Source: Eledone cirrhosa (Eukaryota). From it: DNA of 64,000 nt. The notes beneath the pieces were generated by a model. It saw only the letters and a program-made list of their open reading frames with translations, had not been told where the DNA came from and did not search any database. The DNA lies in NCBI GenBank assembly GCA_964016885.1, contig OZ024758.1, positions 22,630,001 through 22,694,000 of the forward strand. Direction: 5' to 3'. Positions 2,345-31,954 of the stretch are shown piece by piece. Both the position numbers and the translations under genes were made by a program. Position 1 is the first letter of the stretch; every line of letters begins with the position of its first letter.

Positions 2345-2513
2345 GAAAGTATGGTAAGAAACGAGGTGGGCCATAACGCACGAGAGTACTCGATACTGAG
2401 GGTAGTAGAGTGGGTAATAGGAAAAGAGTCAGGACCCCTACGGCAGAGCTCCGGCCGTTTCGACAGCTAGATCCGAAACGGCCGAAGCTCAGCCGTCGGG
2501 GTACTGACTCTTT
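2345..2513 (-). mobile_element. Fold-back (half-hammerhead) repeat family P with tail, putative Penelope-like remnant
   Basis: Hairpin at 2423-2513 containing GAAACGGC...GCCGTCGGGG plus the shared tail GGTAAG...GGGTAGTAGAGTGGGTAATAGGAA. Flanked by (TA)n. Confidence 0.7.
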
Positions 2514-2684
2514 ATATATATATATATATATATATATATATATATATATATATATATATATATATATATATATATATATATATATGTGTGTGTGTGTGTG
2601 TGTGTGTGTGTGTGCGTGCGTGTGTATATATAATATATATATATATATATATATATATACACACAGACAGACCGACATTATATA

Positions 2685-2877
2685 TATATCGGTGTATTAG
2701 TAGTATCGGTAGAGAGTCGGACGCCATGTTTTGCAGCAAAGAGTTACGGCCCTTTATGATCTGAGTTCAAATCCCGCCGAGGTTAACTTTGCCTTTCATC
2801 CTTACGGGGTCGATAAAATAAAGTACCAGTAATACACTGGGTAGTTGCTGGCCTTGTGCCTAAAGTAGAAACAATTA
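2685..2877 (+). mobile_element. tRNA-derived SINE, family A (AAT-type tail)
   Basis: GAGTTCAAATCCCGCCGAGGTTAACTTTGCCTTTCATCC...GGCCTTGTGCCTAAAGTAGAAACAATTA. More than 20 related copies or fragments occur in the window. Confidence 0.85.
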
Positions 2878-3314
2878 TACATATATATATTATATATATA
2901 TATATATATATATATATTTGTGTGTGAGATCCATTCCAGGTTCTTGTCACTGTTGTTTAACTCCACGACGGCCTTGATCAAGCAAATCTATGATCAAACA
3001 CATGAACACCCCGTCGTATTTCCCGGAATAGTTTACCTTGGAGTGCAGGGTCCAATATGCTTTTTTTTGTTTTACTTTTTCTCTTTTTTTTTTTCCTATA
3101 TCGGAAAGGTGTGATATAGCTGCTATTTCTAGAAGGTTGAGCATCCACCTAGAGGTTCTTTACGGTGCAACAAAAGTATGTTTATTTTACCACACAAACG
3201 TAATGTGTTATTAAGCTTTATTAATGTTATCACTACAGAAGAGTGGGCTAAAGTTGTTTCATGCTGGCTTATAATGAATGACTCAGCTGCATGGTGACCT
3301 CGTCTTTAAATGGA

Positions 3315-4460
3315 CTCTCTCTCTCTCTCTCTCTCTCTCTCTCTCTCTCTCTCACACACACACACTCTTTCACAAACACACACACACTCTTTCACAAACA
3401 CACACACACTCTTTCACAAACACACACACACACTCTCTCTCTCTTTCATAAACACACACACTCGCTTTCACACACACTCTTTCACAAACACACACACACA
3501 CACACACACTCTCTTTCACACACACACTCTTTCACAAACACACACACTCTCTCTTTCACACACACACACACTTTCACAAACACACACACTTTCACAAACA
3601 CACACACACACACTCACAAACACTCTCTCTTTCACAAACACACTCTTTCACACACACTCTTTCACACACACACACTCTTTCACAAACACACACACACACA
3701 CACACACTCTCTCTTTCATAAACACACACTCTCTTTTTCACACACACACTCTTTCACAAACACACACACTTTCACAAACACTCTTCCACAAACACACACA
3801 CACACACTCTCTCTCTCTCATAAACACACACACACACACTCCTGTTCACATACCCTCTCTCTCTCTCTACCTATTTCTATCTATCTCTATTTCACACACA
3901 CTCTCTCTCTCTATCTATCGATCTCTCTCACTCACTCACTCACTCACACACACTCCATCTCTCTCTCTCTCTCTCTCTCTCTCTCTCTCTCTCTCTGAAA
4001 GGAGAAGAAGAGAAAGGGTATATGTAGATATGGGTGTGCGAGAGTGTGGGAGCGAGAAGAAAGGAGAAAGTATATATATATGTGTATGTGTGTATGTGTG
4101 TATGTGTGTGTGTGTGTGTGTGTGTGTGTGTGGTTATGTGTGTGTGCTTATGTGTGTGTATGTATGCGTGTGACACGCATACATACACACATGTATGCGT
4201 ATGTGTGCGTATATGTGTGTGTATATGTGCGTGGGTATGTGTGTGCGTGTTTGTGTGTGTGATTATGTGTGTGTATGTATGCGTGTGCGCTTGTACGTGT
4301 GCGTACGTGTGTGCGTGTGTGTGTATGTATGTGTGTGTGTGTGCATGTGTGTGTATGTATGTGTGCGTGTGTGTGTGTGTATGTATGTGTGCGTGTGTGT
4401 GTGTGTGTGTATATGTGTGTGCATGTATGTGTGTATGTGTGTGTATGTATGTATGTATGT
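3315..4460. repeat. (CT)n/(CA)n/(TG)n compound microsatellite
   Basis: Degenerate dinucleotide tracts with a recurring CTTTCACAAACACACA unit. Confidence 0.9.
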
Positions 4461-28912: not shown

Positions 28913-28944
28913 ACCTGAGGAAGGGCTTATGCCCGAAACGTCGT
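28913..28944 (+). ncRNA. Minimal type-I hammerhead ribozyme motif
   Basis: AC-CTGAGGA-A-GGGC-ttat-GCCC-GAAA-CG-TC-GT: canonical core with a GUC site and a short stem I. Confidence 0.75.
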
Positions 28945-29360
28945 CCCCACCACCACCCCACTCTCCAGAGCGTGAAATTAATAAACATTCGTTGTACTAC
29001 CTCTCTGTTTTGTTCCTGTTCAAATTTTCCATTATATATATATATATATATATATATATACACATATTTATACATACACACACACATATATATATATATA
29101 TACACACATATTTATACATACATATATATATATATATATATACACATATTTATGTATATACACATTTATTTATATACACACACACACACACATATATTTA
29201 TGTATATACATATACACATATTTATGTATATACATATTCATATATGTACATATATATACACATATACGTATATATATATATATTATTTATGTACATATAT
29301 ATATATATACACACACATTTACTTATATATACATATTTATATATGTACATATATATGCAT

Positions 29361-30880
29361 AAACCTTCTATCCCAGTCTGTTGTCCCAGTTTTCAAAAAG
29401 GGAAACAAATCCCTTGCCGTGAATTACCGTCCAATCTCACTCACCTCTCATATCATTAAGGTATTTGAGAGAGTGGTGAGATCGCGAATGACCCACTTCC
29501 TTGAGAGTAACAATATGCTGAACTCCAACCAGCATGGATTCCGTAATGGAAGGGATTGCCTGACGCAGCTACTGCATCACTTTGATGACATTTTGAGAGC
29601 CTTGGGAGAGGGTTCCAACACTGATGTTATCTACCTTGATTTCAGCAAGGCCTTTGACAGGGTTGATCATAACATTCTACTGAGAAAGCTGTCCAATATT
29701 GGTGTCACTGGAAAGCTGCTGCAGTGGATCAAGAGCTTCCTGTCAAACAGAACCCAACATGTTGTAGTTGAGGGAGTCAAATCAAGCCCAGCCAAAGTCA
29801 GTAGTGGGGTCCCACAAGGCACTGTGTTGGGCCCACTTCTCTTCATCATCTATATTAATGACATCACTGACATCATCAAACACAGCAACATTAAAATTTT
29901 CGCTGATGATTCCAAGCTCCAAAAGGTCATCAATGGCGTGGATGACCGGATAAGCCTTCAGTCAGACCTACTGGCTGTTACCCAATGGGCAGAAAAGAAC
30001 AACATGTTACTGAACGAAGACAAATTCGAACTGATCCACTTTGGAAAAGAGGATGCTCTGAAACTCCCGTACTCCCTTCCCTCCGGGGAAACTCTCGTGG
30101 CATCTAACAACATCAGAGACTTGGGAGTAACCGTGGACAGCAACATAAGCTGGACCACGCATATAAGCAGCAAAGTTGACATGGCCCGCAGAATGTGTTC
30201 CTGGATCCTCAGAACCTTCCAGTCGAGAGATTCCCGCACCATTATCCTTCTCTTCTCTACTTTTGCCCGACCACACCTTGAATACTGTTGTCCACTGTGG
30301 TCTCCCCACACGAAACAAAGTATCATGAAACTTGAAGCTCCTCAAAGGGCAATCACGAAAAAGATAGATGGCATGTCAGACCTTGACTACTGGGGTCGAT
30401 TAGAAAACCTGAAACTTTACTCACTCCAACGTCGCCGTGAGCGTTATATTATCTGCATGATGTGGAAAATGTTCCATCATCACTGCCCAAATGATGTTGG
30501 CATCGCCTTCAAGATACACCCAAGGCTTGGGCCCCGTGCTATCCGTCCCATTCAAAAATCTAAATCGCAACTCATAACAACAATATGGCACAATTATTTC
30601 ACCTCAATCGGCCCTGCTCTCTTCAACATCACACCAGGACACGTCAAAACAGAAACTGACCACACAAAATTCAAGAAGTCTTTGGACAAATTCCTCCAAG
30701 TAATCCCGGACAAACCACCCACACCCGGATATGTCTCCGCAAACAGTAATTCTCTTCTCGAATGGGCCATGGTGCCCAAATCCTGAATTGAAAGACTTCG
30801 CCAGGTGGTGCTATTAAGTTAGACATGGCCTGGGCCAATACTGGCCAAAACATTTCAAAGTTATTCAAAGTTCAAAGTTA
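29361..30880 (+). mobile_element. CR1-group LINE, 5'-truncated, with a short 3' UTR and (TTCAAAG)-type tail
   Basis: ORF, then about 95 nt ending TTCAAAGTTATTCAAAGTTCAAAGTTA. Both flanks are degenerate (TA/CA)n. Confidence 0.9.
29362..30786 (+). CDS. Reverse transcriptase (ORF2 3' part) of a 5'-truncated CR1-group LINE
   Basis: 474 open codons with [69 protein letters not shown] and RPHLEYC..LWSP. No endonuclease domain. Confidence 0.95.
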
Positions 30881-31954
30881 TACGTATATATATATACATA
30901 TACATATTTATATATGTACATATATATACACACACACGCACATATACTTATATATATACATATACGTATATATATATATACACATACACACATACTTATA
31001 TACATATACGTATATATATATATATATATAAGAACGAGTAGGACCCCGACGGCTGAGCTCAAGCTGTTTCGACGGCTAATTCTGGACGATATATACACAC
31101 ACATACTTATATATACATATACGTATATATACATACACACGTATATATACATACACACACATACTTACATATACATATACGTATAATACACACACATACT
31201 TATATATACATACACGTATAATAAACCTTTCAAGGATTTACACAAGTCCAGCCTCGTGTCATGTTATTATAATTATATATATGTATATATATATATATAG
31301 AGAGAGAGAGAGAGCAAAGGCATGTATATATCTTAGTTATTTATCTATAGGTTGCCAAAATACGTCAATGGCAGTAAATGTTAATACAGTGTTCATTGGT
31401 CCAGCTGTATAAGACTGAACTGAATTTACAGCTGTTCCAGTGTTATAAAGACATCCTATTACAACAGACAGGAAACATCAACTTAGGTATTCATTTTCTA
31501 TATAGCAGCAACACACCAGCTTATATTAAATATCTAGACGCAGACGTTTGTATTTATAGAGATTGGACATAGGCTGCCAAACAAGTAATCAAGTGTTCAG
31601 TGTTTTCTGACCCGTTACTCTTATTCTAGACGTCATTAAACCAATCAACTCTCACGTGATCAATCCAGCTCATCGAGCTATAAAGACTATAAAGAGGTTT
31701 CATATGACAGGAACAACATGCCATTGCAGGCTGAGGTAATAGTAGTGGTATTGAATCGATAATGGTTTCTACTTTTGGCACAAGGCCAGCAAAAGACTTT
31801 ATTTTATCGACCTCTGGATGAAAGGCAAAGTCAACCTCGGCGGGATTTGAACTCAGATCGTAAAGGGACGTAACTATGCTGGAAAGCATGTAAGAGCCTC
31901 TACCGATACTGCCAATTCATTGAATCGATAATGGTTTCTTATATAGATAAAAGG

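Follow-up and report, generated by a model that had tools for sequence, protein, structure and literature searches.

Palindromic repeats with a hammerhead-like 3' half at TA tracts of Eledone cirrhosa and their probable origin from a Penelope-like element

Palindromic copies of family P and their ends

The window analysed here is a 64,000-nucleotide (nt) stretch of the Eledone cirrhosa assembly GCA_964016885.1 (contig OZ024758.1, positions 22,630,001 to 22,694,000, forward strand), in which positions are counted from the first letter. It harbors a short repeat, family P, represented by five hairpins of 90–130 bases, one lone arm and two lone tails, and all eight pieces were found where the original prediction had placed them. 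The further claim that every piece sits in or beside (TA)n or (GA)n holds in that all eight contact (TA)n, but one end of the copy at 5604 does not lie in a microsatellite. The copies are as follows.

2340..2513, minus strand: P copy 1, hairpin 2423-2513 with tail 2340-2419; asymmetric centre; inverted arm stopping 4 nt before the usual inner end, in (TA)n
4986..5176, plus strand: P copy 2, in the order (TA)n, inverted arm, direct arm, tail, (TA)n
5585..5694, minus strand: P copy 3, zero-loop AGCT centre; shortened tail running into (TA)n; far end outside any microsatellite
8163..8375, plus strand: P copy 4, with an inverted arm (8165-8226), a direct arm reaching the inner end (8293) and a tail of 82 nt that closes at the outer end (8375); reference for read mapping
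9108..9236, no strand assigned: P copy 5, tail-free, both arms closed by the inner end (TTCC then TA)
19679..19756, plus strand: P tail alone, 5'-truncated, outer end running into (TA)n
28058..28149, minus strand: P tail with about 10 nt of arm, (TA)n at either side
31031..31088, minus strand: P lone arm, inner 3' end running into (TA)n, 5' truncation 16 nt upstream of GAAA

Read in the arm-to-tail direction, the P arm consists of C-GAAA, CGGC, nine letters including GAGCTC, GCCG, TC, GGGGT, a variable stretch of 9–12 nt, and TTCC. Folding of the hairpins at 2423-2513, 4986-5103, 5604-5694, 8163-8295 and 9108-9236 gave −64.1, −100.0, −75.4, −111.4 and −118.0 kcal/mol, respectively, with z-scores of −10.9 to −23.6 against 100 shuffles each, while folding of the tails revealed no structure shared among them. 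Four of the five hairpins (copies 1–4) carry a tail on one side only and copy 5 carries it on neither side; no tandem P units were present in the window. The inner end forms the start of the inverted arm in copies 2, 4, and 5 (of both arms in copy 5) and of the lone arm at 31031. The hairpin axis, which had been predicted to lie at the loop of stem II, does not occupy a fixed site: its distance upstream of GAAA ranges from about 5 to 25 nt, and asymmetry is frequent. Inspected by eye, the junction of copy 1 has a longer direct arm and a TTCG overlap, that of copy 2 a longer inverted arm and an overlap of about 2 nt as judged against copy 5, that of copy 3 the zero-loop AGCT, that of copy 4 near symmetry and a 5-nt loop, and that of copy 5 a 5-nt loop and no clear overlap.

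Sister arms of copies 1–5 differ at 4, 3, 5, 2, and 0 sites over 40 nt (mean 2.8), and arms of different copies at a mean of 7.9 sites per 40 nt (50 pairs, minimum 3). The segment beyond GGGG had been described as differing between copies and mirrored in each sister arm; the mirroring was confirmed inasmuch as sister arms are mostly nearest one another, but the segments are point and indel variants of one sequence rather than unrelated, and define three or four subfamilies. Copies 1 and 3, copies 2 and 5, and copy 4 with the lone arm group together, and the terminal letters (TTCC or TTCA) depend on the subfamily.

Copies beyond the window were sampled by mapping four runs that carry one species label, two of contigs from a single sample and two of reduced-representation raw reads, on 8161-8378 (80% likeness); a third of the sampled words of copy 4 is present in three runs of one sample. 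Mapped sequences amounted to 11,346 of 16.3 million and 11,989 of 16.5 million contigs, and to 22,340 of 12.5 million and 22,870 of 12.8 million raw reads, so that P is a very common repeat, the totals being no copy number. A (TA)n tract follows the outer end at 8375 in 8066 and 8877 raw reads and in 123 and 135 contigs; in 1056 and 1278 reads the same holds for a tail variant like that of copy 1. The inner end, TTCC with (TA)n behind it, lies 82 nt upstream of the outer one and was recovered in 1363 and 1469 reads. The joints and loose ends described below are the 15 listed of 84 and the 24 listed of 749, respectively. Seven of the 15 joints represent distinct asymmetric centres (8212-8220 joined to 8246-8253), six attach the inverted arm directly to the tail (8186-8221 to 8290-8330) with no duplication, and two are strand switches between arm and tail. 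A loose end before 8246, supported by 982 and 942 reads, has one and the same 30-letter consensus (agreement 0.65) in the two samples. Since it is not the mirror arm and ends like the centre of copy 1, with whose junction it has four letters in common, that subfamily possesses non-palindromic upstream sequence. Raw-read coverage falls at the hairpin centre; this was not taken as a signal, because molecules stop at AATT sites (8215, 8231, 8243), likely the library cut.

Two further repeats adjoin the copies. A 31-bp minisatellite (869-2345, 48 copies) reaches the outer end of copy 1, and its unit includes ACAAAG, the last six bases of the P element; insertion of copy 1 may have seeded the array at its junction. 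A small imperfect hairpin at 8081-8132 lies beyond the (TA)n tract of copy 4, on its far side, and has a few letters like the P tail.

The hammerhead-like half and neighboring ribozyme motifs

The pattern CGAAA-CGGC-N9-GCCG-TH occurs exactly in 7 of the 11 P arms and with at most one mismatch in 10, against 0.03 expected by chance. It is typified by the following feature, whose assignment to the hammerhead is putative.

8253..8281, plus strand: hammerhead-like 3' half in copy 4, with C-GAAA, a stem III of 4–5 bp, a palindromic GAGCTC loop, GUC, and GGGGT

The original prediction was of a hammerhead half with a 5-bp stem III; the pattern of a 3' half fits, but the fifth pair is present only in some arms (A or T at 8270 in the reads). 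That the CUGANGA half is missing was borne out: the exact core is absent from both strands of all eight copies, and within 300 nt of the six arm-bearing copies only the cores of two other elements were found. None of the listed loose ends contains it either, and no compensatory change in stem III was seen by eye among the 11 arms, two results that qualify the assignment; stem III variants in the reads, among those listed, disrupt pairs. Compared by eye with what a decayed ribozyme 5' half would contain, the consensus of the loose end before 8246, itself of 0.65 agreement, has 4 of 7 core letters. A permuted (type II) hammerhead with its core in the tail was not found: no exact core occurs in any P tail on either strand. 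Rfam returned no hammerhead match for the P arm, nor for two complete control cores, which makes its silence on the arm uninformative; over the P copies it gave only sub-cut-off, hairpin-driven microRNA matches among the matches listed (150 of 219). Judged from sequence, the description of the P arm as a hammerhead 3' half is plausible, since the 3' half matches, its distance to the target repeat is like that of neighboring complete cores, and its palindromic loop III is typical; such loops are typical of animal type I motifs in the parts of PMC4209133 and PMC7229834 covered here. As it stands, P is not a member of the type I hammerheads, as the core was tested and is absent.

Cleavage of P at GUC in trans by intact elements, which had been suggested, is not supported. 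The GUC is buried in a duplex of −64 to −118 kcal/mol, whereas an ideal trans partner gains at most −39.6 to −50.9 kcal/mol; trans-cleavage was rejected on this basis for the hairpin copies, and the rejection does not extend to lone arms. A product without catalytic activity is predicted for P, one that would form 40–65 bp of double-stranded RNA (dsRNA) if it were transcribed.

Complete minimal hammerhead cores were detected at six places in the window (184-, 5792+, 8861-, 28915+, 55410+, and 55711+), compared with a mean of 0.03 in 200 shuffles, and all six lie 6–182 nt upstream of a (TA/CA)n tract (background 0.24 within 200 nt). The cores at 8861 and 55410 belong to one family, H. Those at 184 (-), 5792 (+), 28915 (+), and 55711 (+), together with one at about 20405 (+), are complete or near-complete, lie upstream of microsatellites and all differ in sequence. 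Three further hammerhead-bearing families (H, 2, and H2) are likewise inverted head to head.

8754..9097, no strand assigned: family H, in the order (TA)n, inverted piece (8754-8893, minus) with a complete minimal hammerhead and ending at an inner site, distal tail (9013-9097, plus), (TA)n; no duplication
55378-55605: family H, direct copy
20025..20197, no strand assigned: family 2, a 173-nt palindrome, 172/173 self-matching, with its centre about 20 nt upstream of the core variant CAGAAGAT..TGAA
5271-5340 and 43302-43343: family 2, lone arms
20643..21012, no strand assigned: family H2, arms meeting head to head about 5 nt upstream of an intact CTGATGA core at about 20859; inverted arm lacking the GAAA side through a deletion
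4927..4963, plus strand: half motif Q1, TAGCC-GAAA-C..TGAGCTCA..GTC, between two (TA)n tracts and adjoining copy 2; P likeness by eye
7024-7060: Q1-like half motif directly behind (TA)n

The core variant of family 2 is Hydra-like, H2 has a long stem II and is related to family H, and the junction of family H (about 8940-9012) contains a short, irregularly repeated unit. Hammerhead-like 3' halves at 4927-4963, 7024-7060, 5930-5956, and 6691-6717 adjoin (TA)n and are cut at or near stem II; the first two contain TAGCC-GAAA and have the GAGCT loop in common with P. A link between motif Q1 and the loose end before 8246 was rejected, with one match at two mismatches against 0.86 expected.

Origin of the inverted copies

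Target-primed reverse transcription is characterized by fixed 3' ends in the target repeat and ragged 5' ends. P combines fixed 3' ends with variable 5' truncation, a feature of endonuclease-bearing (EN+) Penelope-like elements (PLEs), and shares with them the head-to-head inverted 5'-truncated copies, seen in the five hairpins and in the read joints; its (TA)n bias, apparent in 8 of 8 pieces and in thousands of reads, is that of Hydra, Naiad, and Neptune PLEs. Any target-site duplication would be masked by a (TA)n target. On a modest balance of probability, the P copies are 5'-truncated stubs of a (TA)n-targeting PLE, in which each of the two target ends primed a short cDNA, at the inner or the outer site, and the two products were joined head to head; PLE membership is inferred. 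Judging from PLE biochemistry, an endonuclease would cut both strands of a (TA)n tract. Copying would then begin at the inner site (TTCC then TA) or at the outer site (CCTTCGTT then TA), both observed as ends and putative as priming sites, and the stretch between them would form the optional tail. Both target ends would be extendable, with each cDNA terminating prematurely, either in the tail or no more than about 30 nt upstream of GAAA and so short of CUGANGA, and microhomology of 0–5 nt would join the two cDNA ends. A hairpin would result where the cDNAs overlap, an inverted arm plus tail where they do not, and a lone arm or a lone tail from one-sided events. All of these forms are present, the hairpins both with and without a tail. 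The lone arm at 31031 and each arm of copy 5 make use of the inner end, which therefore requires no fold-back. The original prediction of a PLE-type origin with an inversion formed repeatedly is supported by the two fixed 3' ends running into (TA)n, the variable 5' ends and centres, the nearness of sister arms, and the same layout in other hammerhead families. Its proposal that the fold occurred on the ribozyme's own stem II found no support, given the asymmetric centres, the inverted arm of copy 1 that lacks the stem II strand, and the arm-to-tail joints without duplication.

Comparisons with published systems refer to the parts of the cited sources that were covered. PLE insertions often include an inverted 5'-truncated copy with the tail at one end only (PMC8557442; PMC3846280), and EN+ PLE insertions with an inverted pseudo-long terminal repeat (pLTR) resemble P in the head-to-head inverted 5'-truncated copy, the one-end tail, heavy 5' truncation, microsatellite targets, and a junction palindrome (PMC3846280; PMC8557442). 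Unlike them, P has no open reading frame (ORF) or direct pLTR left, its insert measures 60–210 nt and its tail 82 rather than 30–40 nt, and its junction severs the ribozyme core. Hydra-clade PLEs, which include an Octopus family, have (TA)n targets and a ribozyme near the 3' end with a stem III of 3–4 bp (PMC8557442, Files S1 and S2). P is like this clade, Hydra-1_Obim included, in its (TA)n preference, a ribozyme about 50–200 nt from the 3' end and a paired stem III of 3–4 bp, and one listed Hydra family has an inverted 5'-truncated copy as in P (PMC8557442). However, loop III is 1–3 nt in the listed Hydra ribozymes and 7–9 nt with a GAGCTC palindrome in P, and assignment to the clade would need the protein; six P motifs of 12–15 nt had no match in the supplement of PMC8557442 as far as it was covered.

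A purified PLE protein, that of Poseidon of Anolis (PAc), was described as cutting and extending both target strands from two RNA start sites that bound the tail, as a predicted dimer for which ribozyme cleavage is unnecessary in vitro (PMC11167929). The two start sites around the tail and the cutting and extension of both strands match the proposed origin of P, whereas the PAc sites lack target homology and are 30–40 nt apart, and P is known from genomic stubs alone (PMC11167929). The nearest mechanistic analogue of P is L1 twin priming, in which a second priming from the other target end likewise produces a 5' inversion with a junction deletion or duplication (PMC11702581). L1 overlaps are 1–10 nt and the second site varies, whereas P overlaps are 40–65 nt, one inner site is reused and there is no poly(A) (PMC11702581). 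Non-LTR retrozymes are, like P, short and non-coding, with a type I motif and a palindromic loop III, and are thought to be PLE-derived, but they form head-to-tail tandems of about 300 nt with complete ribozymes, whereas P is head to head and lacks the core (PMC7229834; bioRxiv 10.64898/2026.07.22.740005). Short direct terminal repeats of the replitron type, as described in the part of the source covered, were not seen by eye in P. Scans for the P pattern gave no match in viral contigs (two scans) or prokaryote genomes; a single metagenome match, on a GC-rich contig that looks bacterial and by eye is otherwise unlike P, was taken as chance. The family was not found in the full-text literature, most subscription journals and repeat databases being outside the reach of the search.

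Starting from the same PLE source, the main alternative, possible though doubtful, is snap-back: a single cDNA folds onto itself, at a short microhomology or at stem II, primes synthesis of its own complementary strand, and is taken up at TAT by the far end of the target. PLE junction palindromes were interpreted as self-priming in the relevant part of PMC3846280, the nearness of most sister arms is in keeping with such an event, and the centre of copy 1 fits a 4-nt TTCG/CGAA pairing with an 11-nt loop, given that the loose-end consensus (982 and 942 reads) ends alike. Yet snap-back cannot make an inverted arm plus tail without duplication, the form found in 6 of the 15 listed joints and in family H, unless a later deletion is added, and it fits poorly with the zero-loop centre of copy 3 and with an inverted arm that extends past the direct arm in copies 2 and 5 and in the joints of 8215-8220 to 8253. 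A fold on stem II moreover predicts one symmetric centre per subfamily, against the seven centres among the listed joints. An inherited palindrome is unlikely: here the master would be non-autonomous and palindromic, either DNA inserting in TA, as a miniature inverted-repeat transposable element (MITE) or a fold-back element, or an RNA template, with centres and arms deleted afterwards and the arms kept alike by conversion. Copy 5 does resemble a TA-flanked fold-back element, the copies fall into subfamilies (1+3, 2+5, and 4 with the lone arm), and palindromic DNA repeats are known, for example frog Harbinger (PMC5625713, in the part covered). However, the pair of ends is not fixed, often with 82 extra nt on one side that have their own fixed end, the terminal letters depend on the subfamily, lone tails and lone arms combine a fixed 3' end with ragged 5' ends, and the reads place non-palindromic sequence upstream of one subfamily's arm; deletion would account for variable centres and not for two independent 3' ends. 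The conserved terminal inverted repeats (TIRs) at both ends that mark MITEs are absent from P, with its asymmetric tail, variable termini and lone arms and tails. Nor do its ends form the fixed pair of terminal repeats that would have pointed, against the original prediction, to a DNA transposon. Inverted duplications are a recognized artefact of amplification and long reads, and a fold-back of the assembly or library would produce them, but this explanation is largely refuted and hardly credible: sister arms differ at 2–5 of 40 nt in four of five copies, arm-to-arm joints occur in contigs of two runs of one sample, and the same ends recur in raw reads of two other samples.

Several points weigh against the joining of two PLE cDNAs. 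Among 45 frames of the window there is no GIY-YIG match and hence no driver ORF, although truncated stubs need not carry one, and the two RVT_1 matches to reverse transcriptase (RT) are LINE-like by eye. An intact P ribozyme was not found in the window copies or the listed loose ends. The 82-nt tail exceeds the 30–40 nt described for PLEs, and the inner end overlaps TAT, whereas PAc starts at sites without homology to its target. Variable centres and arm-to-tail joints can also result from deletions in an older palindrome, and one arm of copy 3 is nearer to copy 1 (4 differences) than to its own sister (5), with ties present. Most listed joints are single contigs, several with a short side of 20–27 letters and some with unknown letters in between, and the runs, carrying only a third of the sampled words, possibly derive from a related species. 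The minimal hammerhead descriptor was relaxed after the matches had been seen; a stricter version gave 2 against 0.02.

Possible significance and other features of the window

The head-to-head layout of P is the published PLE layout in miniature. What may be new is that the junctions of three families are located at the ribozyme: inside the stem II zone in P, and about 5 nt and 20 nt upstream of the core in H2 and family 2, respectively. As tails are short and cDNAs often measure 45–85 nt, truncation near the ribozyme may reflect length alone, and palindromes are detectable only where the cDNAs overlap. It is a rather unlikely conjecture that the hammerhead fold acts as a stop-and-join signal of PLE insertion, with the RT halting at the ribozyme so that junctions accumulate there in unrelated families, and that the stubs are a mass source of perfect dsRNA hairpins underlying the exceptional octopod A-to-I hyper-editing; if the stop-and-join part were true, PLE hammerheads would have a cleavage-independent role. 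The formation of inverted PLE ends and the role of the hammerhead are stated as open questions in the relevant parts of PMC8557442 and PMC11167929. P offers a natural data set of thousands of tiny insertions, with two start sites and mappable junctions, in which two-ended priming can be set against snap-back and the clustering of junctions at the ribozyme assessed. An exceptional share of dsRNA-forming loci was reported for octopus, whose lineage is the one reported to have the most of them (PMC5625713, in the part covered), and if the host is an octopod, the P hairpins are candidate ADAR substrates in that lineage.

Other parts of the window contain features of different kinds. A U6 small nuclear RNA match above the Rfam cut-off lies at 17065-17165 (-), with only about the first 70 nt matched, and represents either a truncated U6 pseudogene or a U6 target site. 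RT frames (RVT_1) resembling long interspersed nuclear elements (LINEs) occur at 28891-30786 (+), with an open 3' part of about 485 amino acids (aa), and at 22296-22628 (-); of 38 relatives of the long frame, the one with the best identity (63%) is from Argonauta, which together with motifs of octopus short interspersed elements points weakly to an octopod. Ends starting CAGGGTGTC or TGGTGTCC behind TA, at 27710 (-) and 32707 (-), resemble Tc1/mariner terminal repeats. No hammerhead core was found in an 83-bp tandem repeat (33192-34849, 20 copies, 97% matches). Finally, a 346-aa open frame at 40028-41065 (-), with one relative at 69% and no Pfam match, is probably a host exon.

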